Below are positions 45 through 49,024 of a stretch of 49,271 bases of DNA, one piece after another. The DNA lies in assembly GCA_038046265.1 (NCBI GenBank), contig JBBSWN010000013.1, positions 1 to 49,271 on the forward strand, read 5' to 3'. The notes below the pieces were generated by a model. That model searched no databases and was not told the origin of the DNA. It saw only the letters and a list, made by a program, of their open reading frames with translations. The DNA is from Nanobdellota archaeon. GTDB taxonomy: Archaea > Nanobdellota > Nanobdellia > SCGC-AAA011-G17 > JACPIM01. Position numbers and translations under genes: made by a program. Numbering within the stretch: position 1 is the first letter of the stretch; each line of letters opens with the position of its first letter.

Positions 45-154
45 CGGGCCTACGAGGATTCGAACCTCGACCAGAAGCTATCCTCGTTTTTGCTTAAGCT
101 TTTTTGAAAAGCTTACTCCGAAGGCTACTGTTCTATCCATTAAACTATAGGCCC
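45..154 (-). tRNA. intron-containing tRNA, probably tRNA-Arg(UCG); 38-nt intron at the canonical 37/38 site (plus-strand 80..117)
   Basis: The reverse complement folds with a GGGCCUA/UAGGCCC acceptor stem, GUUU/GAAC D-stem, CGAGG-UUCGAAU-CCUCG T-arm and discriminator G. The anticodon loop CU-UCG-G is interrupted after position 37. One U-U mismatch in the anticodon stem makes the isotype tentative. Confidence 0.8.
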
Positions 155-24736: not shown

Positions 24737-25336
24737 TTATTTTAAGAACAGTTTTTTTATTTTTTCTATATATTCTTCTTTAGCCCATTCTTTTAGATTA
24801 GTAATTCTTGTTCCATATTTGTTGAAGAAAGTAATTCTGCTTAATGGTATTTTAGAGAGTTTCTTTTTTTGTTTTAAATCTTCTTCATAACCCAAAGTAA
24901 TAATTATTTGAGGAGTTATGCTGTTTTCTAATCTTAATATTCTTGATATTGCTGACTTTTCAAAGACATTCACCCAGCAGGAACTTAGGCCTATGTCTGA
25001 AGCTTTTAAAGAAATCAAGAGAGCAGCTGCTGCAGAATTTTGAAGAGAGTATTCTTTTGCCCTTTCTTTGTAATAAGTTTCAAGCCTTCCTTGATCAGAA
25101 CAAACAACTATGAAAACTGGGGCAGAATTCATCCAGAACTGCCTTAATGAAGCTTCTGCAATCTGGTTTTTCAAGGATTTATCATTTATGACAACAAACC
25201 TAAAGTCCTGGAGATTTCCTGAATTAGGGGCTGTTCTTGCTGCCTCAAGCAACAAAGCTATTTTGTCAAGCGTTACCTGCTTTTCAAGATATTTTCTTAC
25301 ACTATGCCTTTTCTTGATTGCTTCATCTAAGTTCAT
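24737..25336 (-). CDS. nitroreductase-family flavoprotein
   Basis: AIKKRHSVRKY...APNSGNLQDFRFVVI is the typical nitroreductase N-terminus. Confidence 0.8.
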   Translation of the reverse strand: MNLDEAIKKRHSVRKYLEKQVTLDKIALLLEAARTAPNSGNLQDFRFVVINDKSLKNQIAEASLRQFWMNSAPVFIVVCSDQGRLETYYKERAKEYSLQNSAAAALLISLKASDIGLSSCWVNVFEKSAISRILRLENSITPQIIITLGYEEDLKQKKKLSKIPLSRITFFNKYGTRITNLKEWAKEEYIEKIKKLFLK

Positions 25337-25374
25337 TAGTAAACTTTAAATTTGCTAAATTTATAATCTTTTTG

Positions 25375-27066
25375 ATGGATTATAAAGAGCTTGTAAAATA
25401 TTATGAGGAATTAGAAGGAACTACAAAGAAATTAGAAAAGACTGACATTCTTTCAAAATTGCTAAAAAAGTGCTCTTTAGAGGAATTAGACTTAATTGTT
25501 TATTTAGTACAGGGGAAAGTTTTTCCTGAGTGGGATGAAAGAAAAATTGGATTCAGCTCCAGATTGATGTTAAAAGCCATAAGCTCTGTAACAGGAGTTA
25601 ATAGTGAGGAAGTAGAGAAATTATGGAAGAAAAAAGGAGATCTAGGAACAGTTGTTGAAGAATTAATCGGAAAGAAAAAACAAACTACTTTAGTTTCAAG
25701 AAAATTAGACACTAAAAAAGTTTTTGAAAACATAAGAAAATTAGCTGAATTAGAAGGTGAAGGGACAGTAAACAAGAAAGTGCAACTAGTTGCTGAATTA
25801 TTGAGCAATTCTAATGACAAAGAAGCTAAGTTTATTGTCAGGACTGTTTTAGAAGATTTAAGAGTTGGAGTAAAGGAAGGCATAATTAGAGATGCAATTG
25901 GAAAAGCTTTTGAAAAAAATGTAGATGAGGTAGAAGAAGCATTTAATTTAACTGTTGATTATGGGGAAGTTGCCAAATTAGCAAAGCAAAATAAGTTAAA
26001 AGACATTGAAATAAGGCCTGGAAGACCGGCAAAACTAATGCTTCCTGTACTTGTAAACAGTGTTGATGAAGGTATTGAAGCTTTAGGAAAAACTGTTCAA
26101 GCTGAATTTAAAATGGATGGATTTAGAATTCAGATCCATAAGAACAATAAAGAAATAAAACTGTTTACAAGAAGAATGGAGGATGTTACTAAGCAGTTTC
26201 CAGATGTTGTTGAATTTGTAAAAAAACATGTCAAGGGAGAAAAATTTATTATTGACTGTGAGGCTGTTGGATTGGATAAAAAAACTAACAAGTACATGCC
26301 TTTTCAGAATATTTCACAGAGGATTAAAAGAAAATATGACATTGAGCAGACTGCAAAAGAATTTCCTGTTGAGCTGAATATTTTTGACATTCTTTACTTA
26401 GATGGAAAAGATTTAATGAAACTTCCTTTAATTGAAAGAAGAAAAATTCTTGAAAAAAATGTAAGGGAGAAAAAATGGGAGGTTGTTTTAACAAGAAAAT
26501 TAGTAAGCAGTGATGAGAAAGAGATTTCTGAATTTTTCAATGAATCTCTAAAAGCTGGAAATGAGGGAATTATGCTGAAAAATATTAATTCTTTTTATAT
26601 TCCAGGAAGGTATGTTGAGGGGTGGTGCAAATTAAAAAATGTTCTTGAACCTCTGGACTTAGTTATTGTCGGAGCAACGTGGGGTGAAGGAAAAAGGGCT
26701 GGTGAATTAAGCTCGTATATAGTTGCGTGCAGAGACAAGGATAAATTTTTAGAATGCGGCATGGCAAGCACTGGAATGAAAGAAAAAGAAAATGAAGAAG
26801 GAGATGCAACTTACAAAGAAATGACAAAACTACTAAAACCATTAATTACAAAGGAAGAAGGGAGGACTGTTTTTGTCAAGCCAAAGATAATAATTGAGGT
26901 TGGATATGAAGAAATACAAAAAAGTCCCAGTTATAGTTCTGGTTACGCGCTGAGGTTTCCAAGAGTTTTACGCTTAAGAAATAATGAAAAGACCTTAAGT
27001 GAAATTAACACAATCAAAGATGTCGAGAAAATATACAATTACCAAAGGGGGAAAAAAATAATTTAA
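25375..27066 (+). CDS. lig: ATP-dependent DNA ligase
   Basis: Motif I EFKMDGFRIQIH (KxDGxR), EGIMLK, and WCKLK. ATG at 25375 is preferred to the TTG at 25318 because a TATA-like aaatttataat lies about 25 nt upstream. Confidence 0.9.
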   Translation: MDYKELVKYYEELEGTTKKLEKTDILSKLLKKCSLEELDLIVYLVQGKVFPEWDERKIGFSSRLMLKAISSVTGVNSEEVEKLWKKKGDLGTVVEELIGKKKQTTLVSRKLDTKKVFENIRKLAELEGEGTVNKKVQLVAELLSNSNDKEAKFIVRTVLEDLRVGVKEGIIRDAIGKAFEKNVDEVEEAFNLTVDYGEVAKLAKQNKLKDIEIRPGRPAKLMLPVLVNSVDEGIEALGKTVQAEFKMDGFRIQIHKNNKEIKLFTRRMEDVTKQFPDVVEFVKKHVKGEKFIIDCEAVGLDKKTNKYMPFQNISQRIKRKYDIEQTAKEFPVELNIFDILYLDGKDLMKLPLIERRKILEKNVREKKWEVVLTRKLVSSDEKEISEFFNESLKAGNEGIMLKNINSFYIPGRYVEGWCKLKNVLEPLDLVIVGATWGEGKRAGELSSYIVACRDKDKFLECGMASTGMKEKENEEGDATYKEMTKLLKPLITKEEGRTVFVKPKIIIEVGYEEIQKSPSYSSGYALRFPRVLRLRNNEKTLSEINTIKDVEKIYNYQRGKKII

Positions 27067-33998: not shown

Positions 33999-36014
33999 TT
34001 GGTGAATGATGTTGTTGAACAAATAGAGAAATTTCGCGATTTTCTAGAGCAAAATTATCAAACACAGTTAAATGAAATCATATTAAAAGGAAGGAATTTT
34101 TTGTTGATTGATTTTACAAACTTATTAAAATATGATCATGAACTGGCAGACCAATTATTAGACCAGCCAGAAGAAACAATAAAAGCATTTGAATTAACTT
34201 TGGAACATTTTGACATTTCAACATTATTGAGAATAAGATTTTTTAATCTGCCCCAAAGCCAAAAAGTAAAAATAAAAGACATAAGAAGCAATGATTTAGG
34301 AAAATTTCTGTTGACAGAAGGAATTGTCCGTCAGTCTTCAGACGTTCGTCCTCAAGTTGTGTCTGCAAAATTTGAATGTCCTTCCTGCGGCAATTCAATT
34401 TCAATTCTGCAAGTTGATGTAAGATTTAAAGAACCTTATAGATGCACATGCGGTAAAAAAGGACGCTTTAGATTATTGTCAAAAGAATTAGTTGATGCTC
34501 AGAGGATTGTTGTTGAAGAAAGTCCAGACACATTAGAAGGTGGGGAGCAGCCAAAAAGATTGAATGTTTTTTTAAAAGAAGACTTAGTTGAACCAATTAT
34601 GGAAAAGAAAACTACTCCTGGATCAAAAGTAAGAATCAACGGCATTGTAAAAGAAGTTCCAGTCCTACTAAAAACAGGAACACCAAGCACAAAATATGAC
34701 ATTATGATGGAAGCTAATTTTATTGAGCCACTAGAAGAAACATTTGAAGAACTAGAAGTAAACAAAGAAGATGAAGAAAAAATTCTTGAATTAAGCAAAA
34801 ATCCTAAGATTTACGAAAAATTAGTCAACAGCATTGCTCCCTCAATATACGGACATTCTGAAATAAAAGAAGCTTTAATACTTCAATTATTTGGTGGGGT
34901 AAGGAAAGAAAGAAAAGACGGCACTTGGAACAGGGGAGACATTCATATTCTTCTGGTAGGTGATCCTGGATCGGCCAAATCAAGCTTGCTGTTTTTCATG
35001 TCAAAAATAGCACCAAAAGCAAGATATGTTTCTGGTAAATCTGCTTCAGCAGCTGGTTTAACAGGAGCAATTGTAAAAGATGAATTTTTAAAAGGATGGG
35101 CATTAGAAGCAGGAGCTCTCCCATTAGCCAATGGGGGAGGTGTGTTCTTGGATGAGCTTGACAAAATGGATTCAGAAGACACATCAGCTTTGCATGAAGG
35201 TCTTGAACAACAGCAAATTACATTTAGCAAAGCAAATATCCAGGCAACTTTATTGACAAGAGTAAGTGCATTAGCAGCAGCAAACCCAAAACTAGGAAGA
35301 TTTGACCCATATCAACCAATTGCAGCACAAATTAATCTGCCTCCTGCCTTGATCAACAGGTTTGACTTAATTTTCCCAATGAGAGATATTCCAGATGAAC
35401 AAATAGACGCGAAAATCGCAACTCATATTTTAGAAGTTCATGAAAACAAAGGAACAATAGAGCCTGATATTGAAAGCAAATTCTTAAAAAAATATGTTTC
35501 ATATGCAAAAAAGAAAATTCTTCCAAGATTAACAGAAGGAGCAAAAGAAGAAATAAAAAATTTCTATGTAAGTTTAAGAAACAGCGGCGATTCAAAAGAC
35601 GGAGTAAAACCAATTCCTATTTCAGCAAGACAATTAGAAGCTTTAATAAGATTAAGTGAAGCATCTGCAAAAATACGCTTAAGCAGCAAGATAACAAAAG
35701 AAGATTCAAGAAGAGCAATCAGAATTTTAAGAAGATGTCTGGAAAAAGTCGGAATTGATCCAGAAACTGGAAAATATGACATTGATGTTTTGTCAACAGG
35801 AATTTCTACATCTCAAAGAGGAAAAATAATTATAGTTCGTGAAGTCATAAATGAATTTGACAGAAACGGTGTTAAAACAATACCAATTGAAGATGTAATT
35901 AATATTTGCAAAGAAAAAGGCCTTGAAGAAAGCAGGATAGAAACAATTCTTGACCAGCTGAAAAAAGAAGGTGAAATATTCCAGCCAAAAGTCGGATTTA
36001 TCAGCAAAATTTGA
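33999..36014 (+). CDS. mcm: MCM replicative helicase
   Basis: Zinc motif CPSCGN...CTCG, Walker A ILLVGDPGSAKS, Walker B FLDELDKM, arginine finger SARQLEALIRL, and a C-terminal winged helix. TTG start after a GGGGG SD. Confidence 0.95.
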   Translation: MVNDVVEQIEKFRDFLEQNYQTQLNEIILKGRNFLLIDFTNLLKYDHELADQLLDQPEETIKAFELTLEHFDISTLLRIRFFNLPQSQKVKIKDIRSNDLGKFLLTEGIVRQSSDVRPQVVSAKFECPSCGNSISILQVDVRFKEPYRCTCGKKGRFRLLSKELVDAQRIVVEESPDTLEGGEQPKRLNVFLKEDLVEPIMEKKTTPGSKVRINGIVKEVPVLLKTGTPSTKYDIMMEANFIEPLEETFEELEVNKEDEEKILELSKNPKIYEKLVNSIAPSIYGHSEIKEALILQLFGGVRKERKDGTWNRGDIHILLVGDPGSAKSSLLFFMSKIAPKARYVSGKSASAAGLTGAIVKDEFLKGWALEAGALPLANGGGVFLDELDKMDSEDTSALHEGLEQQQITFSKANIQATLLTRVSALAAANPKLGRFDPYQPIAAQINLPPALINRFDLIFPMRDIPDEQIDAKIATHILEVHENKGTIEPDIESKFLKKYVSYAKKKILPRLTEGAKEEIKNFYVSLRNSGDSKDGVKPIPISARQLEALIRLSEASAKIRLSSKITKEDSRRAIRILRRCLEKVGIDPETGKYDIDVLSTGISTSQRGKIIIVREVINEFDRNGVKTIPIEDVINICKEKGLEESRIETILDQLKKEGEIFQPKVGFISKI

Positions 36015-41698: not shown

Positions 41699-41841
41699 TT
41701 GTTGAAAATAAAGAAAGTTAGTACAAACAAAACAAGCCATACAACAAAAGAAATTAAAGCCCAATTTTTATTTCTTAAAAAACTGGCATAAGCTAATGAA
41801 ATTGTTGCAATTATAATTGGAATAAATTGTACTGGGTTCAT
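41695..41841 (-). CDS. possible 48-aa two-TM micro-protein
   Basis: Hand translation gives MNPVQFIPIIIATISLAYASFLRNKNWALISFVVWLVLFVLTFFIFNN. Its ATG overlaps the stop of the upstream ORF (ATGA). The ORF is below the length cut-off of the ORF track. Confidence 0.3.
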   Translation of the reverse strand: MNPVQFIPIIIATISLAYASFLRNKNWALISFVVWLVLFVLTFFIFNN

Positions 41842-42011
41842 TCTACATTCGCTCCTATTACTAATAAAAAATTTCCAAAGGCAAAGAAACCTTGGGCAAT
41901 TGGATTAGAAGGATTTGTTATTAAGAAGGGTAAGGAAAAAGCAGTAATTAAACCAGCAATTGTTCTTATTACAAATCCAGTTGTAAAATGTAAACTTCCG
42001 CCTTTATCCAT
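41838..42011 (-). CDS. possible 57-aa membrane micro-protein
   Basis: The ATG at 42011 is preceded by a GGGAAGGGA SD and a TATA-like gaactttaaaataga. The product MDKGGSLHFTTGFVIRTIAGLITAFSLPFLI... is hydrophobic. Confidence 0.4.
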   Translation of the reverse strand: MDKGGSLHFTTGFVIRTIAGLITAFSLPFLITNPSNPIAQGFFAFGNFLLVIGANVE

Positions 42012-42196
42012 ATTGCTATAATCCCTTCCCAATATTTATTACTTTCTATTTTAAAGTTCTTGAAAATTATATTCTTCAAATTTGTGTACTTTTAAATTTA
42101 TTACAGTATGTCAGTCATTAATTAAGAAATAACTTAAAATTCTGCCCACAGATAATTATTGTCTAATTCGTTTTCTTTTCCAAGGTTTTCTTTATT

Positions 42197-42223
42197 TTTT
42201 CCGTAAACGCTTTTCTTAAAAGT
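42197..42223 (+). promoter_or_regulatory. 27-nt conserved element, copy A (upstream of top6B)
   Basis: ttttccgtaaacgcttttcttaaaagt is 25/27 identical to 45556..45582. It contains the CTTTTC/AAAAG dyad. Confidence 0.6.
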
Positions 42224-42230
42224 GTTTCTA

Positions 42231-42250
42231 AAGAAAAGCTTTATAAATAA
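42231..42250 (+). promoter_or_regulatory. BRE/TATA promoter for top6B
   Basis: aagaaaagctttataaataa lies about 45-55 nt before the GTG start at 42295. A GGTG SD follows at about 42282. Confidence 0.5.
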
Positions 42251-42294
42251 CTTCCTTCCAACATAATTATTCTAAAAAAGTGGTGTAATTAGAA

Positions 42295-45200
42295 GTGATA
42301 AAAGCTGAAGAATTAGCACAAAAGCAAAGAGAAATTTCTGTTTCTGAATTTTTCACAAAAAACAGGCATTTACTAGGTTTTGATAGCCCGGCAAAGGCAA
42401 TTTTAATGGCTGTAAAAGAGGCGTGTGACAATAGTCTAACCTATGATATGCCGTTTGTTATAAAAACTAAAGGCAAAATTTCGATAGTAAAAATAGGTGA
42501 ATTTGTTGATAATTTTATTAATAAAAATGAAGAAAAGTCTGAAAAGCTAAGAAATGGTAGTTTAGAAAAATTGCGGCTTGATGAAGGTATAGCTGCTTTA
42601 GCATTTGATAAAAAGACATTTAAACTGTCTTTTAGAAATATTTCTACAATTTTTCGACACAAAGTTAATAGTAAAATATATCGGGTTAAATTAGTTTCTG
42701 GAAGATATGTAGATTTAACTGCATATCACTCTGTTTTTACTTTAAACCAGGGTAAAGTCATATCAATTCCAACCGCTGATTTAAAAGAAGGTATGTCCAT
42801 TGTTGTTCCAAAAAAATTATGGAATAATCAATCAATAAATGAAATTAACTTAATTGAAGAGTTATTGCTTCTCGAACCATCATTAACTAATCGAATTAAT
42901 ATCTATGGAATTACTTCATTATTTACTGACCAAATAATTAAGAATATCAAGGATCTTTTACCAAAAAATAAGTGGTATAAAATAGGGGATTTTAAAAAAT
43001 GTAATTATCTCCCGCTTAACATTTTGCGAAATCTTAATATTGATTTAAATAGTTTTTCCGAATCCAAAATAGGTACTTCTCTTTGTAGATACAAAATACC
43101 AGCAATCCTGAAAATAGACAATAATTTAGCAGAATTATTGGGCTTTTATGTATCTGAAGGATCTATGTTAAAAACAGGACGCAGATTGCATTTCTCTTTT
43201 GGATCTCATGAAAAAGAGTTTATTTACTACGTACAGGATTTATATGAAAAGGTTTTTAAAATCAAGCCGAAAATCGGGAAAGCGCACAATACAGCATACA
43301 ATGTTATTTCAAATTGTACCATTCTATGCTTTGTATTAAAGAATATATTTAAAGTCGGGACAGATGCGAAAGATAAAAAAATACCTCAATTCGTGTTTAA
43401 TTTTCCCGCAAATCTAAAATACTCTTTTTTACTGGCTTATCTTGCTGGTGACGGGTATCCTAGTAAAAAAATTTTCGATATTTTAAAAAATAATTTACTG
43501 CTGACTGATTTAGATATTGACAAAACAACATGTGCAACTGCAAGTAATGATTTATTTATTGGTCTTCAATATATTTTATCTTCTCTGGGTTTAAGTTACA
43601 GCACTAGTATAAAAGAACCGAAAGAAAGAATTATTAATGAAATTAGGGCTAAATTTGGAAAAAGTTATTATATTTATATACCTACTAAAGGGAAAAATAG
43701 TGATATCAATTATTTACCAGTAAAAGATACTATTTCTAGTACAATAGATCTCCAAATAAAGCACTCTATTTTGAGGTATAACCAAAAAAACCTGCATATC
43801 GAGACAATAATGAATTCTCTAAGTAATTCAAAATTAATTTTACATGAAGGATTAGATTCCTTTTTAGCTGGCGATCTAGGTTTATTAGAAATAGTAAAAA
43901 TAGAAGAAATACCATATCATAAAGAATGGGTTTACGACGTATCAGTACCAGAATGTGAAAACTTTGTTGCAGGTATGGGAGCAATTGTTTGTCATAATTC
44001 TCTTGATGCATGTGAAGAAATGAGAGTTCTGCCAGAAATTAAAGTTGAAATCAAAGAGGTATCAGAAAATAGATTTAAAGTAGATGTTGAAGACAACGGC
44101 CCCGGAATTGTAAAAGAACAAATACCAAAAGTTTTTGCGAAATTACTATATGGAAGCAAATTTCACAGACTGCGCTGCAGCCGCGGTCAGCAAGGAATTG
44201 GAATTAGCGCTGCTGTTTTATATTCACAATTAACAACAGGCAAGCCAGCTATAATAACATCAAAAATTAGTCCAAAACAAAAAGCACACCGTTACTGGCT
44301 TCATATTAACACTGCAAAAAATGAGCCTGAAATAATAAAGGAAGATTCTTTTGAATGGAACAAAGATCACGGCACTAAAGTTGAAATAGAATTGGAAGGA
44401 AAATATCAAAAAGGAAAACAAAGCGTGGATGAATTTTTAAAACAAGTTGCAATTGTCAACCCACATGCTAAAATAACTTATGTAAATCCGCTAAATGAAA
44501 AAATAGAATATCCAAGAGTTACAAATGAAATGCCTGCAGAAGCAGTTGAAATAAAACCTCATCCATACGGCATTGAGCTTGGAATTTTAATAAAAATGCT
44601 GAAATCTACTGAATCAAGAACATTAAGCTCTTTTTTACAAAATGATTTTTCAAGAATAAGCAGTGTAACAGCAAAAGAAATTTGTGACAAGGCAAATTTA
44701 GACCAGAAGTTAAAACCAGAAGAACTGACATTACCCCAGTCAGAAGCTTTGTACAAAGCAATGCAAAACACAAAAATAATTGCTCCTCCAACAAACTGCC
44801 TTACTCCAATTGAGGAAGAACTATTAATTAAAGGCCTTCAAAAAGAGATTAATGCTGAATTTTACACATCTGTTTCAAGAAGCCCTGTTGTATACAAGGG
44901 AAGGCCATTTTTAATTGAAGTTGGAGTTGCCTATGGGGGAGACATAGAAAAAGAAGCACAGGTAAGATTAATGAGGTTTGCTAACAGAGTTCCTTTACTA
45001 TACCAGCAAGGGGCGTGCTCAATAACAGAAGCTGTACAGGAAACAAATTGGAGACCATATGGACTGCAGCAAAGCAGTGGAAGTTTGCCTTATGGACCTT
45101 TAGTTTTAGTTGTTCACATGGCCAGTGTATGGGTTCCTTTTACATCAGAAAGCAAGGATGCTATTGCACATTATGAAGACATTATAAAAGAAATTAGATT

Positions 45201-45528
45201 AGGGTTGCAGGAATGCGGAAGAAGACTGGGAATTTACATAAGAAAAAATGTAAAAGCTAAAGAACAAAAAGAAAAAATTGACTTATTTACAAAATTTATT
45301 CCTGAATTAGCTTCATCATTAAGTTCATTGACAGGAGAAAAATCAAAAACTCTTGAAGAAGAACTGACTAAAATTTTAAACAAGAACATGAAAGAATTGT
45401 TAAGCAACATTGATAATGCAGAAATAAAGCAGGAAATAAGAGAACAGATGAAAGAACATTTAAACGGAAAAAAGGAGAAGATTGAAGTTAAGAAAACAAA
45501 AAAGGAGATTCAAACACAGCTTAAGTAA
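42295..45528 (+). CDS. top6B: DNA topoisomerase VI subunit B, interrupted by an intein
   Basis: The exteins (555 aa joined) carry the GHKL N-box ...KEACDN|SLDACEE, the G-boxes DNGPGI and GQQGIG, and the H2TH and transducer regions. The total ORF of 1077 aa is about twice the normal size. Confidence 0.9.
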   Translation: MIKAEELAQKQREISVSEFFTKNRHLLGFDSPAKAILMAVKEACDNSLTYDMPFVIKTKGKISIVKIGEFVDNFINKNEEKSEKLRNGSLEKLRLDEGIAALAFDKKTFKLSFRNISTIFRHKVNSKIYRVKLVSGRYVDLTAYHSVFTLNQGKVISIPTADLKEGMSIVVPKKLWNNQSINEINLIEELLLLEPSLTNRINIYGITSLFTDQIIKNIKDLLPKNKWYKIGDFKKCNYLPLNILRNLNIDLNSFSESKIGTSLCRYKIPAILKIDNNLAELLGFYVSEGSMLKTGRRLHFSFGSHEKEFIYYVQDLYEKVFKIKPKIGKAHNTAYNVISNCTILCFVLKNIFKVGTDAKDKKIPQFVFNFPANLKYSFLLAYLAGDGYPSKKIFDILKNNLLLTDLDIDKTTCATASNDLFIGLQYILSSLGLSYSTSIKEPKERIINEIRAKFGKSYYIYIPTKGKNSDINYLPVKDTISSTIDLQIKHSILRYNQKNLHIETIMNSLSNSKLILHEGLDSFLAGDLGLLEIVKIEEIPYHKEWVYDVSVPECENFVAGMGAIVCHNSLDACEEMRVLPEIKVEIKEVSENRFKVDVEDNGPGIVKEQIPKVFAKLLYGSKFHRLRCSRGQQGIGISAAVLYSQLTTGKPAIITSKISPKQKAHRYWLHINTAKNEPEIIKEDSFEWNKDHGTKVEIELEGKYQKGKQSVDEFLKQVAIVNPHAKITYVNPLNEKIEYPRVTNEMPAEAVEIKPHPYGIELGILIKMLKSTESRTLSSFLQNDFSRISSVTAKEICDKANLDQKLKPEELTLPQSEALYKAMQNTKIIAPPTNCLTPIEEELLIKGLQKEINAEFYTSVSRSPVVYKGRPFLIEVGVAYGGDIEKEAQVRLMRFANRVPLLYQQGACSITEAVQETNWRPYGLQQSSGSLPYGPLVLVVHMASVWVPFTSESKDAIAHYEDIIKEIRLGLQECGRRLGIYIRKNVKAKEQKEKIDLFTKFIPELASSLSSLTGEKSKTLEEELTKILNKNMKELLSNIDNAEIKQEIREQMKEHLNGKKEKIEVKKTKKEIQTQLK
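42433..43998 (+). mobile_element. intein (522 aa) with a LAGLIDADG homing endonuclease domain
   Basis: Block A is SLTYDMPFVIK..G (Ser1) and block B is LTAYH. The two LAGLIDADG motifs are LLGFYVSEGS and LLAYLAGDGY. Blocks F/G are VYDVSVPECENFVAGMGAIVCHN, followed by Ser+1. Confidence 0.85.
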
Positions 45529-45586: not shown

Positions 45587-46675
45587 ATGGCAGAAAAAAC
45601 TAAATCAAAAAAAGTTCTTGAAGAATTTGGCTCAAATATAGTATCACAGATAAAGAAAGGGAAAAATCCTGAAATAGAAATGACATTAAGAAATTTAAGT
45701 AATATAGTTTACGACACTAAAAACAAGATCCTGAAATTGGGAAATAAAATGCAGAGCAGGTCATTCTTTAATTTAGCCCATTCAAAGAAGTTTTTGCAGA
45801 CAGTTGAAATCGCAAGTAAAATTAAAAAAGAGCTTTTAGAATCAGGAAAACACTCCAGCTTAAGAGACGTTTTCTATATGGTAAAAAGAACTATTCCAGG
45901 CACTGACATTAACCTAGTAGATGACCAAACAGAATCAGACAAAGCCATTGAAGACCTTGAAGTTATAACAGATTTTTCAAGAGAACAACTGCATATAGCA
46001 GCAAATAAAATGGGAAGCGTGGCTGGAAAAGTAGTTATTGAAGACAAGGGAGACACAATTGACTGGAGTAAAATGGGGAGTGGAGGATGGTCAATTCCTT
46101 CTATAACAGATGAATTGAAATTTAAGAAAGTCAATGCAAAATATGTTCTTTACACGGAGAAAGCAGCTGTGTTTGAAAGATTAAATGAAGACAAGTTCTG
46201 GGACAAAAACAACTGCATAATTATTTCATCACAAGGCCAGACAACTAGGGGGATTAGAAGAATGTTGCAAAGATTGTATGAAGAACACAATCTTCCAATT
46301 TATGTTCTCTGTGACGGAGACATTTATGGCGCATATATTTATTCTGTAATAAAATATGGATCAATTGCTCTTGCGCATGCATCGGGCAGATTAACAATTC
46401 CTGGTGTAAAATATGTTGGAATTACGATGGATGATGTTGTAAAATATGATTTAAAAAAACATTTTATCAAATTAGATGAAAAAGACTATGCAAGAATAAA
46501 ACAAGTTTCAGAATATGCTTGGTTTAAAAATAATAATAACTGGTTAAGGCAGTTTAAGATGATGAAAGATTTTGGGGCAAAAGTGGAAATCCAGTCCCTT
46601 ACTTCAAAAGGAATAAGCTTCATTTCTGAAAAATATTTGCCTGAAAAAATAAAAAACAAGGAATTTTTAGATTAA
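45587..46675 (+). CDS. top6A: DNA topoisomerase VI subunit A (Spo11 family)
   Basis: Catalytic Tyr region SLRDVFYMV, Toprim Glu LYTEKAAVFERL, and the DxD motif LCDGDIYG. Confidence 0.9.
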   Translation: MAEKTKSKKVLEEFGSNIVSQIKKGKNPEIEMTLRNLSNIVYDTKNKILKLGNKMQSRSFFNLAHSKKFLQTVEIASKIKKELLESGKHSSLRDVFYMVKRTIPGTDINLVDDQTESDKAIEDLEVITDFSREQLHIAANKMGSVAGKVVIEDKGDTIDWSKMGSGGWSIPSITDELKFKKVNAKYVLYTEKAAVFERLNEDKFWDKNNCIIISSQGQTTRGIRRMLQRLYEEHNLPIYVLCDGDIYGAYIYSVIKYGSIALAHASGRLTIPGVKYVGITMDDVVKYDLKKHFIKLDEKDYARIKQVSEYAWFKNNNNWLRQFKMMKDFGAKVEIQSLTSKGISFISEKYLPEKIKNKEFLD

Positions 46676-46722: not shown

Positions 46723-46823
46723 GGGCCCGTAGCTTAGTCTGGTTGGAGCACTTGGGCTTAAAAATGACCCATCTCAGTCGACTGATAATCGAGCGGTCGT
46801 CAGTTCAAATCTGATCGGGCCCA
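46723..46823 (+). tRNA. tRNA-Ile(GAU) with a 26-nt intron in the 5' strand of the anticodon stem (about 46752..46777)
   Basis: GGGCCCG/CGGGCCC acceptor stem and GCUU/GAGC D-stem. After the insert is removed, the anticodon arm C|UCGA-CUGAUAA-UCGAG is perfectly paired. T-arm GUCAG-UUCAAAU-CUGAU; discriminator A. The spliced sequence closely resembles my recollection of typical archaeal tRNA-Ile(GAU) sequences. Confidence 0.85.
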
Positions 46824-46834
46824 TGTCTTATAAA

Positions 46835-49024
46835 ATGTACAAGCTAATAATCAGTGAAAAACCACAAGCAGCATTAAAAATAGCAACAGCTCTAGCAGAC
46901 GATAAAATAGAGGAAAAGCAGAAAAACAAGGTTTCTTACTTCAAGATAAAAAGAAACAAGGAAGAATATGTTGTTGCACCAGCAGTCGGCCACTTGTTTG
47001 CATTGACAGACAAAAGAAAAAAAGGACTTACTTATCCTTCTTTTGATGTTGAATGGAAAGAAGCTCATTTAGTTTCAAAGAAAGCAAAATTTTCTGAAAA
47101 ATACTTGGACTTGATAAAAGAACTTTCAAAAGACTGCAAGGAAATAATCATAGCAACAGATAAAGACTTGGAAGGAGAACTAATTGGGTATAATATATCA
47201 AGATTTGTAAGCCAAAACAAGAAAGCAAAAAGAATGGAATTTTCTACATTAACTAAAGAAGACTTAATTACTTCTTTGGAAAATGCAAAAAATGAAATTG
47301 ACCTTCCATTGGCAAGAGCAGGTGAAACTCGTCATGTAATGGATTGGATATGGGGAATTAATACATCAAGAGCATTGACACTGGCAATAAAAAGAGCTGG
47401 AAACTTTAAGCTAATGTCATCTGGCAGGGTCCAGGGACCAACCTTAAACTTGATTGTGAAAAAAGAAAAAGAAATTCTTGCGTTTAAGCCGGTGCCATTC
47501 TGGAATGTAGATTTACATACAGACAAATTCATTGCACAGCATGAAAAAGGAAATATTTTTGAGAAAAAAGAAGCAGATGACATATTAAAAAACACAAAAG
47601 AGAAAAAAGCTTTTGTAAAAAACATAAAGAAAACAGAATTTATCCAATCTCCTCCTAACCCCTTTGACTTAACCTCTTTGCAGTTGGAAGCATACAGAAC
47701 TTTAGGAATAAACCCAAAAGAAACTTTGTCATTGGCTCAGGACTTATATACAAGTGGTTTAATATCATATCCAAGAACTTCCTCCCAGAAATTACCTTTG
47801 TCATTAAACTTGAAAAAAATAATTGAACAGCTAAATAAAAACTCAGCTTATAATGAAATTTGTTCTGAATTATTAAAAAAAGAGTTAAAGCCAAATGAAG
47901 GACAAAAATCAGATCCCGCTCACCCAGCCATTCACCCAACAGGAGAATTTGCATCCTTGGAAGGAAAACAGTTTAGGTTGTATGATTTAATTGTTAGAAG
48001 ATTCCTAAGTACATTTGGGGAAAATGCAAAAAAACAAACTAATCATATTGACATTGATATAAATAATGAAACATTCTCAGTTTCCGGCACAATAACTTTG
48101 GAAAAAGGCTGGTTAAATTATTACGGAAGATATGCAAAGTCAAAAGACGTTGAACTTCCTAAGTATAAAGAAGGCCAGGAAATAAAAGTTAATGAAATTA
48201 AAATTGAAGACAAAGAAACTCAGCCCCCAAAAAGATACACTCCAGCTTCTATTATCAAAGAATTAGATAAAAAAACGCTCGGAACGAAATCAACTCGTGC
48301 AGCAATTGTAGATGCTTTATACAAAAGAAATTATGTTCAAGGTACATCAATTCAGGCAACAACTTTGGGCATAAGAACAATAGAAACTCTTGGTAAATAT
48401 TGTGAACAAATTATAGATGAAAAATTAACTAGACATTTTGAAAAAGAAATGGAGCAGATAAGGGAAAATACAAAAAATCCCGATGAAGTTTTAAATGAAG
48501 CAAAAGAAAGATTAGTTGGGGTTTTCAAGAAATTTTCAGAAAATGAGGAGAAAATAGGCAAGTCATTGTTAGAATCACACAGAACAACAGAAGCTGAAAT
48601 GAATACATTTGGTCTGTGTCCAAAATGCAATACAGGAAACTTAAAAATATTGTATTCTCCAAGAACAAAAAGCAAGTTTGTCGGCTGCACTCATTATCCT
48701 AACTGCAAGAATATTTATTCACTGCCTAGAAACGGATTAATAAAAAAAATAGAAGAAAAATGCAAAGAATGCAACTTTTACCAGGTTTTAGTTATAAGAG
48801 CTGGAAAAAGACCATGGAAACTGTGTTTAACTCCTAATTGCAAGTCAAAAGAAGCCTGGGCCAAGCCTTTTGTAAAAAGCCCTGAAGGAAAATCCGACGA
48901 AAAAGATTTACCAAAAACCGACGAGACAGTAAAAGAAGAAAAACCAGAAGAAAAGAAAATAGATATAAAAGAAAAACCTAAAAAAGCAGTTAAGAAAAAA
49001 ACTAGTAAAAAGAAAACAGCATGA
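46835..49024 (+). CDS. topA: type IA DNA topoisomerase (archaeal TopA/Topo III-like)
   Basis: N-terminal YKLIISEKPQAA, Toprim IIATDKDLEGELIG, catalytic Tyr ISYPRTSSQ, and two C-terminal zinc ribbons (CPKCN...CTHYPNC; CKECN...CLTPNC) plus a Lys-rich tail. ATG at 46835 is preferred to 46823, which overlaps the tRNA. Confidence 0.9.
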   Translation: MYKLIISEKPQAALKIATALADDKIEEKQKNKVSYFKIKRNKEEYVVAPAVGHLFALTDKRKKGLTYPSFDVEWKEAHLVSKKAKFSEKYLDLIKELSKDCKEIIIATDKDLEGELIGYNISRFVSQNKKAKRMEFSTLTKEDLITSLENAKNEIDLPLARAGETRHVMDWIWGINTSRALTLAIKRAGNFKLMSSGRVQGPTLNLIVKKEKEILAFKPVPFWNVDLHTDKFIAQHEKGNIFEKKEADDILKNTKEKKAFVKNIKKTEFIQSPPNPFDLTSLQLEAYRTLGINPKETLSLAQDLYTSGLISYPRTSSQKLPLSLNLKKIIEQLNKNSAYNEICSELLKKELKPNEGQKSDPAHPAIHPTGEFASLEGKQFRLYDLIVRRFLSTFGENAKKQTNHIDIDINNETFSVSGTITLEKGWLNYYGRYAKSKDVELPKYKEGQEIKVNEIKIEDKETQPPKRYTPASIIKELDKKTLGTKSTRAAIVDALYKRNYVQGTSIQATTLGIRTIETLGKYCEQIIDEKLTRHFEKEMEQIRENTKNPDEVLNEAKERLVGVFKKFSENEEKIGKSLLESHRTTEAEMNTFGLCPKCNTGNLKILYSPRTKSKFVGCTHYPNCKNIYSLPRNGLIKKIEEKCKECNFYQVLVIRAGKRPWKLCLTPNCKSKEAWAKPFVKSPEGKSDEKDLPKTDETVKEEKPEEKKIDIKEKPKKAVKKKTSKKKTA

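Follow-up and report, generated by a model that had tools for sequence, protein, structure and literature searches.

Inteins in subunit B of topoisomerase VI (Top6B) have been recorded in archaea. Soucy et al. 2014 described a "top6B" intein allele in 8 Halobacteria (PMC4071816), and Novikova et al. 2016 counted 15 Top6B inteins in Euryarchaeota and other archaea, placing Top6B as the sixth commonest archaeal intein host (PMC4760082). Inteins cluster in the ATPase motifs of replisome proteins, and functional retention has been proposed for them (Novikova et al. 2016, PMC4760082). In a later study, inteins were stripped from the sets of Top6A and Top6B (PMC9348778). DPANN archaea are barely sampled in the published intein surveys, one of which lists 2 DPANN genomes (PMC10643990). 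Here we describe the top6B gene of a Nanobdellota archaeon, which lies in a contig of 49,271 nucleotides (JBBSWN010000013.1, assembly GCA_038046265.1; the whole stretch is hereafter called the window). The gene is interrupted at the N-box of its ATPase domain by an intein with a nested LAGLIDADG endonuclease, and the sequence indicates that the intein is very probably splicing-competent and the gene functional. The intein is not new: the same intein is found at the same site in dozens of public genomes. A less expected by-product, worth following up, was that Top6B and GyrB N-boxes may have an intein lineage in common.

The published Top6B inteins and the window intein are elements of the same kind (full-size, with a LAGLIDADG endonuclease) in the same host protein, but the host in the window is a DPANN (Woesearchaeota-type) archaeon, unlike that of the published haloarchaeal allele. 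Members of Halobacteriales, including Halorutilus salinus F3-133, have an intein at the same N-box site, which is 35-37% identical to that of the window. The published haloarchaeal allele, for which the text gives no coordinates (PMC4071816), may lie at the N-box or at a neighbouring position (site b, see below). A homologue search starting from the H. salinus N-box intein gave 6 matches, none of them in Haloquadratum or Halarchaeum. PI-PkoII (the Pol-2 intein, 2cw7) resembles the window intein over the whole length, that is, in the Hint domain, the DNA-recognition region and the two-motif LAGLIDADG core; however, the identity is about 20%, the host is a family B DNA polymerase and the target site is another one. 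Archaeal polymerase inteins such as Psp-GBD Pol, which use Ser as both nucleophiles and end in His-Asn, illustrate that Ser/Ser junctions are ordinary; they, too, differ from the Top6B intein in host and site. The N-box inteins of GyrB share with the window intein the position E-x-x-D-N/S-x-D-(E or A) (a slash within a sequence marks the splice junction or insertion point), Ser1, the terminal HN and Ser+1, and are 527-552 aa long, but they reside in an anciently diverged GHKL topoisomerase and mostly in another domain of life. Inteins in the P-loops of MCM, DnaB and RFC-S likewise interrupt a nucleotide-binding motif, with several sites per ATPase domain (PMC4760082). These hosts are P-loop NTPases, and their inteins at analogous sites were judged to be independent acquisitions (PMC4760082), whereas Top6B and GyrB have the GHKL/Bergerat fold and their inteins appear homologous.

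The top6B precursor and its intein

The first-pass annotation had assigned to top6B an open reading frame of 1077 aa with a 522-aa insert, read as an intein. Translation confirmed the length, the boundaries of the insert and every motif string quoted. The frame has a GTG start, and its coordinates include the stop codon. The features of the gene are as follows.

42295..45528, plus strand: top6B precursor (N-extein, intein and C-extein); matches NCBIfam PRK04184 with 705 bits, in two stretches when unspliced
42295..42432, plus strand: N-extein, 46 aa, ending ...AVKEACDN; placed by alignment to 2zbk/1mx0
42433..43998, plus strand: class-1 intein, 522 aa, with nested LAGLIDADG endonuclease; Pfam, NCBIfam, phmmer against PDB, AlphaFold2 (AF2) model and Foldseek
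42433..42465, plus strand: splicing block A, SLTYDMPFVIK, with the Ser1 nucleophile at 42433..42435; conservation of S1
42718..42729, plus strand: splicing block B, T96-A-Y-H99; conservation of T96 and H99
43135..43164, plus strand: LAGLIDADG motif 1, LLGFYVSEGS (intein aa 235-244), with acidic E242; conservation and Pfam LAGLIDADG_3
43372..43395, plus strand: endonuclease block D-like DKKIPQFV with K315, invariant in the alignments
43429..43458, plus strand: LAGLIDADG motif 2, LLAYLAGDGY (intein aa 333-342), with acidic D340; conservation of Y336, G339 and D340
43924..43998, plus strand: splicing blocks F and G, EWVYDVSVPECENFVAGMGAIVCHN, with H521-N522 at 43993..43998; NCBIfam intein_Cterm
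43999..45528, plus strand: C-extein, 509 aa plus stop, beginning SLDACEE; HATPase_c and Topo-VIb_trans matches

The intein corresponds to residues 47-568 of the precursor; in the translated frame it starts with SLTYDMPFVIK and ends with EWVYDVSVPECENFVAGMGAIVCHN. Matches to intein and endonuclease profiles were all above the curated cut-offs: Pfam Intein_splicing (PF14890) over insert residues 15-522 (E=3e-21, 76 bits against 35.8), Pfam LAGLIDADG_3 (PF14528) over intein residues 231-292 (E=1.7e-6, 28.7 against 22.5), NCBIfam intein_Nterm (TIGR01445; 39.5 against 24.5) and NCBIfam intein_Cterm (TIGR01443; 23.7 against 15.6). Such agreement is far more than chance would give. Blocks A and B and the two LAGLIDADG motifs are present at the positions listed above. 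At the C-terminal junction, ...VCHN/SLDA, His-Asn is followed by Ser+1 (43999..44001). The tripeptide NSL is present at both junctions, and a boundary shift of up to 3 residues would leave the spliced product unchanged. Shifted junctions were rejected because only DN/S...HN/S suits both intein chemistry and the profile register, in which position 2 of the intein_Nterm model is aligned to intein residue 2. Cys520 (43990..43992), which lies in VCHN at -2 from the C-terminus, is common to most Top6B N-box inteins. Cys44 (42424..42426), at extein position -3 in EACDN, is replaced by Val in most relatives. The G+C content of the intein is 0.284 and that of the C-extein 0.342, while at third codon positions (GC3) the intein has 0.20 and the host genes 0.22-0.28. 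A recent import was therefore not accepted on composition: the G+C content of the intein is lower than that of the exteins, yet its GC3 is near that of the host genes.

The insert splits the GHKL N-box, leaving E42-A-C-D-N46 in the N-extein and S-L-D-A in the C-extein. The C-extein also carries the G1 box (DNGPG), the ATP-lid/G2 box (SRGQQGIG) and the transducer domain with its switch Lys. In-silico excision, by which residues 1-46 were joined to 569-1077, gave a Top6B of 555 aa with the restored motif E-A-C-D-N-S-L-D-A. The earlier claim that the joined exteins restore the N-box stood, because the spliced protein matched PRK04184 in a single stretch (residues 4-529 to model positions 5-529 of 539, 724 bits, cut-off 274). 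It also matched TIGR01052 (566 bits, cut-off 381) and aligned without a gap over the junction ("vkeavdnaldacee") to the Top6B of M. mazei (2q2e, E=2e-166), and contiguously to that of S. shibatae (2zbk). In the latter alignment E42, N46 and K432 correspond to E38, N42 and K427 of S. shibatae, which in that enzyme serve as general base, as ligand of Mg-ATP and as switch lysine of the transducer, respectively. By alignment, the intein thus interrupts the N-box immediately after the Mg-ATP-binding Asn46. Since the insertion sits exactly at the Mg-ATP ligand, the unspliced precursor would very likely be unable to bind or hydrolyse ATP. The first-pass annotation had expected the enzyme to be inactive until spliced and the element to be still mobile; both statements went too far as worded, and we infer each of them at the strengths given here and below, with residue conservation, dN/dS and the patchy presence of the intein in their favour.

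Fold and conserved residues of the intein

The AF2 model of the intein, built with a 32-sequence alignment (A1), was confident throughout, with a mean predicted local distance difference test (pLDDT) score of 93.3 and a predicted template modelling (pTM) score of 0.92. Its best Foldseek match was PI-PkoII (2cw7; E=7e-38, template modelling score 0.74), and the other top matches, namely the Tli and Pho VMA inteins and PI-PfuI, were intein-endonucleases as well. Mini-inteins matched the Hint part, while I-DmoI and I-SceI matched the endonuclease core (E about 1e-5). In the model, the endonuclease part is predicted to have the alpha-beta-beta-alpha-beta-beta-alpha pseudo-dimeric core of LAGLIDADG enzymes. 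By sequence, the nearest solved structure in a phmmer search of PDB was again PI-PkoII of T. kodakarensis (2cw7, E=4e-34), followed by TFIIB, KlbA, CDC21, RadA and VMA inteins. Profiles and fold agree in assigning the insert to inteins.

Conservation was read from an alignment of 43 N-box inteins, from the mixed alignment A1 and from an intein-only alignment of 13 diverse inteins (A2). S1, T96, H99, G339-D340 and H521-N522 are conserved in at least 98% of the 43 N-box inteins, and E242 in at least 90% in the N-box intein alignments. S1 is invariant in the 43 and in all loci classified in the genome scan described below, and T96, H99, G339 and D340 are likewise invariant in the alignments. V500, Y501, D502, H521 and N522 are invariant in A2, with H521 and N522 at 90% or more in A1. 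Therefore, the complete set of residues for the four-step splicing pathway is in place. G237 and G243 of motif 1 and Y336 of motif 2 are invariant in the alignments, and the conservation of E242 and D340 means that both acidic metal ligands of a two-motif LAGLIDADG enzyme are in place. K315 is invariant in both A1 and A2; by analogy with PI-SceI and related enzymes it would act in the active site.

The intein would work as follows. After translation of the precursor, Ser1 would undergo the N-O acyl shift and the ester would be handed to Ser+1. Asn522 would cyclise with the help of His521 to release the intein, and an O-N shift would then yield a normal peptide bond in the 555-aa Top6B, which would pair with the Top6A encoded directly downstream. 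The freed intein may cut intein-free top6B alleles at an N-box sequence of roughly 20-40 bp, and repair of the cut allele would copy the intein in. Splicing, the lack of ATPase activity in the precursor and endonuclease cutting are all three predicted from the sequence.

Related alleles and the state of the endonuclease

An intein-free allele had been proposed as a check on the insert. Three syntenic contigs, which have the gene order P-type ATPase or neighbour, eIF1A, KH protein, top6B and top6A in common, provided the comparison.

L005: extein identity to the window 85.9%; same N-box intein, 80% identical
L001: extein identity to the window 84.5%; intein-free, with uninterrupted DNA GACAAT/AGTTTAGATGCA and protein ...VDN/SLDAC...
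L004: extein identity to the window 85.8%; empty at the N-box, with a 483-aa intein at site b, 30% identical to that of the window

The 42-bp empty site in L001 reads GTAAAGGAGGGTGTGGACAAT/AGTTTAGATGCATGCCAAGAG. Thus the region is not a fixed domain of Top6B, being absent in L001 and from the N-box in L004. Three observations had been named beforehand as speaking against an intein, namely an insert lacking Hint matches, orthologues with the same region as a conserved non-splicing domain, and exteins failing to align contiguously with Top6B; the opposite was found for each.

Upstream of top6B in the window there is an AT-rich spacer of ~600 bp (41699..42294) without a convincing open reading frame. 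At the corresponding place L001 has a spacer of 50 bp, L004 one of ~160 bp and L005 one of ~430 bp.

Because the three intein states occur at nearly equal extein identity, the intein has recently been gained or lost among these relatives. Nei-Gojobori comparison of the window with L005 gave ratios of nonsynonymous to synonymous substitutions (dN/dS) of 0.107 for the whole intein (dS about 1.05), 0.115 for its endonuclease and DNA-recognition part (dS about 1.06) and 0.072 for the C-extein (dS about 1.31), the ratios being rough because dS is near saturation. They are far from neutrality, and the intein, its endonuclease part included, is under purifying selection. In the same comparison, strong purifying selection is seen on the exteins (dN/dS 0.03-0.07). 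The dN/dS of 0.115 and the scattered occurrence of the intein among relatives whose exteins are 85% identical are indirect evidence for cleavage and homing, and we consider that the endonuclease is probably still active.

Several points weigh against the mechanism given above. Besides the near-saturated dS, divergence of the intein has kept pace with that of the exteins between the window and L005 (80% versus 86% amino acid identity; dS 1.05 versus 1.31), a pattern that vertical descent explains no worse than recent homing does. The endonuclease part might also be under purifying selection for a role other than DNA cleavage. The most probable of the alternatives is an intein that still splices but has lost homing by its endonuclease. 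It would be a vertically inherited passenger, retained because any imprecise deletion from the essential N-box would kill the host. The identities of intein and extein track each other across relatives (80/86% and about 65/63%), dS is similar in both, and a neighbour-joining tree of the inteins groups them by host lineage, all of which suits such a passenger. However, more than 40 to 100 members retain K315 and the acidic residue of each LAGLIDADG motif, and a dead endonuclease should drift toward a dN/dS of 1 or shrink to a mini-intein. In addition, the three nearest relatives (~85% identical) show the three states of no intein, site a (the N-box) and site b, which points to recent gain or loss. 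An immobile passenger is thus rather unlikely.

It has also to be considered that the intein is kept as a post-translational switch and that conditional splicing at the N-box gates topoisomerase VI. The position exactly at the Mg-ATP ligand, where the precursor would very likely be inactive, agrees with this idea, as do the long-term co-divergence of the intein with its host and the proposal of functional retention for inteins in replisome ATPase motifs (PMC4760082). On the other hand, target choice by a homing endonuclease alone predicts insertion at the most conserved DNA, and the close relative L001 does well without an intein. The Ser1/Ser+1 junctions offer no redox-type catalytic Cys, and the extein Cys at -3 is unconserved. 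A regulatory switch is therefore quite improbable. A non-splicing insertion, decayed pseudogene or assembly chimera, hinted at only by the lower G+C content of the insert (0.284 versus 0.342 in the C-extein) and the metagenomic origin of the contig, is effectively excluded by a frame open through 1077 codons, intact catalytic residues in intein and exteins, an extein dN/dS of 0.03-0.07, a GC3 in the intein near that of the host genes, and the same architecture in dozens of independent contigs from different samples.

Intein sites in Top6B across archaea

The first-pass annotation had asked whether the insertion site is common to other Top6B inteins, and it is. Searches with the full open reading frame found thousands of Top6B proteins, and the places where their alignment to the spliced query is broken revealed several insertion sites. 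An intein occupies the exact N-box position in about 40 protein clusters; Ser1 is present in all of these and HN/S in nearly all. Among named genomes, at least 35 Top6B genes carry the N-box allele. None of about 100 relatives at this site lacks Ser1, and all Top6B relatives listed have HN/S or HN/T at the C-junction. The earlier observation of Ser1/Ser+1 junctions in place of Cys is thus correct as to the residues, but the junctions are ordinary for this site.

Top6B has at least four intein sites, and a gene may carry up to two inteins, giving proteins of 1570-1650 aa. The sites other than the N-box are as follows.

Site b: before SRGQQG
Site c: inside SRGQQGIGI/C, with Cys1
Site d: near spliced residue 355

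Further Top6B intein sites were seen in DPANN archaea and haloarchaea (P0029/L004:6001-9153, P0014, P0038, P0039, P0005, P0006 and P0037), and also in L054, downstream of 4566. The site-b inteins of haloarchaea and nanohaloarchaea terminate in VKN/S, not HN/S.

A scan of one genome per species, seeded with A1, gave 80 loci with the N-junction pattern and a confirmed intein relative, and their hosts were sorted by the C-extein. The Top6B hosts of the N-box intein belong to Woesearchaeota/Nanoarchaeia, Aenigmatarchaeota, UBA346, Nanohaloarchaea and many Halobacteriales, the cultured H. salinus F3-133 among them, plus one metagenome-assembled genome (MAG) of Archaeoglobaceae. Two inteins of the scan look damaged and may be decaying or variant: the Halobacteriales copy in L053:3001-4558 carries a stop codon or frameshift close to the C-terminus of the intein (ending ...CVSQ), and a patescibacterial GyrB copy in L079:3001-4638 ends in KN, not HN.

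Related inteins in the N-box of GyrB

GyrB was the host at 46 loci by C-extein classification (42 with a stricter junction pattern). These hosts are Acidobacteriota, Planctomycetota, Chloroflexota and many Patescibacteria, as well as one gammaproteobacterial MAG and one Nanoarchaeota MAG. The GyrB junction, ...YEVVDN/S(L, V or I)DEA..., is homologous to the N-box position of Top6B. Examples are found in L036-L083 (such as L036:3001-4593 and L045:3001-4605) and in the proteins P0124, P0125, P0127 and P0130.

The GyrB N-box inteins are 34-39% identical to the window intein over the full 522 aa. They were the best matches outside Top6B (291-348 bits over all searches). When 1.84 billion representatives were searched exhaustively with phmmer, 2210 proteins reached E<=1e-3 and 77 reached E<=1e-30. 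In that search the GyrB N-box inteins scored 291-311 bits, followed by those in a secretion ATPase, AMP/thymidine phosphorylase, TFIIB and the primase large subunit (165-234 bits, 28-35% identity). In a neighbour-joining tree rooted with a TFIIB intein, the GyrB N-box inteins all fall in one clade, whose sister is the main Top6B clade, and a second, deeper Top6B clade lies outside both; with a single outgroup and no support values, this topology is a lead. The reconstituted target DNAs have a common core, GAgG..GTnGAtAAt/TCn.TnGA. Top6B sites are 70% identical among themselves and GyrB sites 68%, against 53% when a Top6B site is compared with a GyrB site.

These results suggest that one intein lineage may have moved between the homologous N-boxes (E-x-x-D-N/S) of archaeal Top6B and bacterial GyrB, which we rate as slightly more probable than its contrary. 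Such a host switch, across paralogues and across domains of life, would be possible because the DNA coding for the N-box keeps a common core. No description of an N-box intein host switch between Top6B and GyrB was found in the searchable literature, and a literature search for inteins in Bergerat-fold topoisomerases found nothing; under "GyrB intein", the literature concerns engineering of the Synechocystis intein.

Other features of the window

No other intein copy was found in the window by tblastn and a custom hidden Markov model profile search in six frames. MCM, ATP-dependent DNA ligase and topoisomerase IA are frequent archaeal intein hosts; the genes for all three are in the window (33999..36014, 25318..27066 and 46823..49024, respectively) and none has an intein there. 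The neighbouring subunit gene begins 58 nt 3' of top6B and is followed by the type IA topoisomerase gene.

45587..46675, plus strand: top6A (Spo11-like catalytic subunit), intein-free; Pfam TP6A_N, Topo_VI_alpha and TOP6A-Spo11_Toprim

Two Rfam tRNA matches were missed by ARAGORN, one of 101 nt on the plus strand (46723..46823) and one of 110 nt on the minus strand (45..154). The former abuts the start codon of topA at 46823. Since it has 35 nt in the anticodon loop versus 9 in the model, it is probably an intron-containing archaeal tRNA.

Implications

In annotation, the gene is best entered as an intein-containing top6B whose mature product has 555 aa, and not as an unusually long Top6B. Alignments and phylogenies that use top6B need these 1566 nt to be removed. 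The Ser1/Ser+1 chemistry without a catalytic cysteine may be of minor interest for protein engineering.

The window intein is a further case of an intein in the nucleotide-binding motif of an ATPase of replication or DNA topology, in a GHKL fold and not in a P-loop. With its several sites, Top6B of DPANN archaea and haloarchaea is an intein hot spot. If true, the host switch between Top6B and GyrB would contrast with the independent acquisition published for inteins at analogous sites of bacterial and archaeal ATPases. The pair of Top6B and GyrB, with one homologous site, is a natural experiment on how far across paralogues a conserved motif can be followed by a LAGLIDADG endonuclease.

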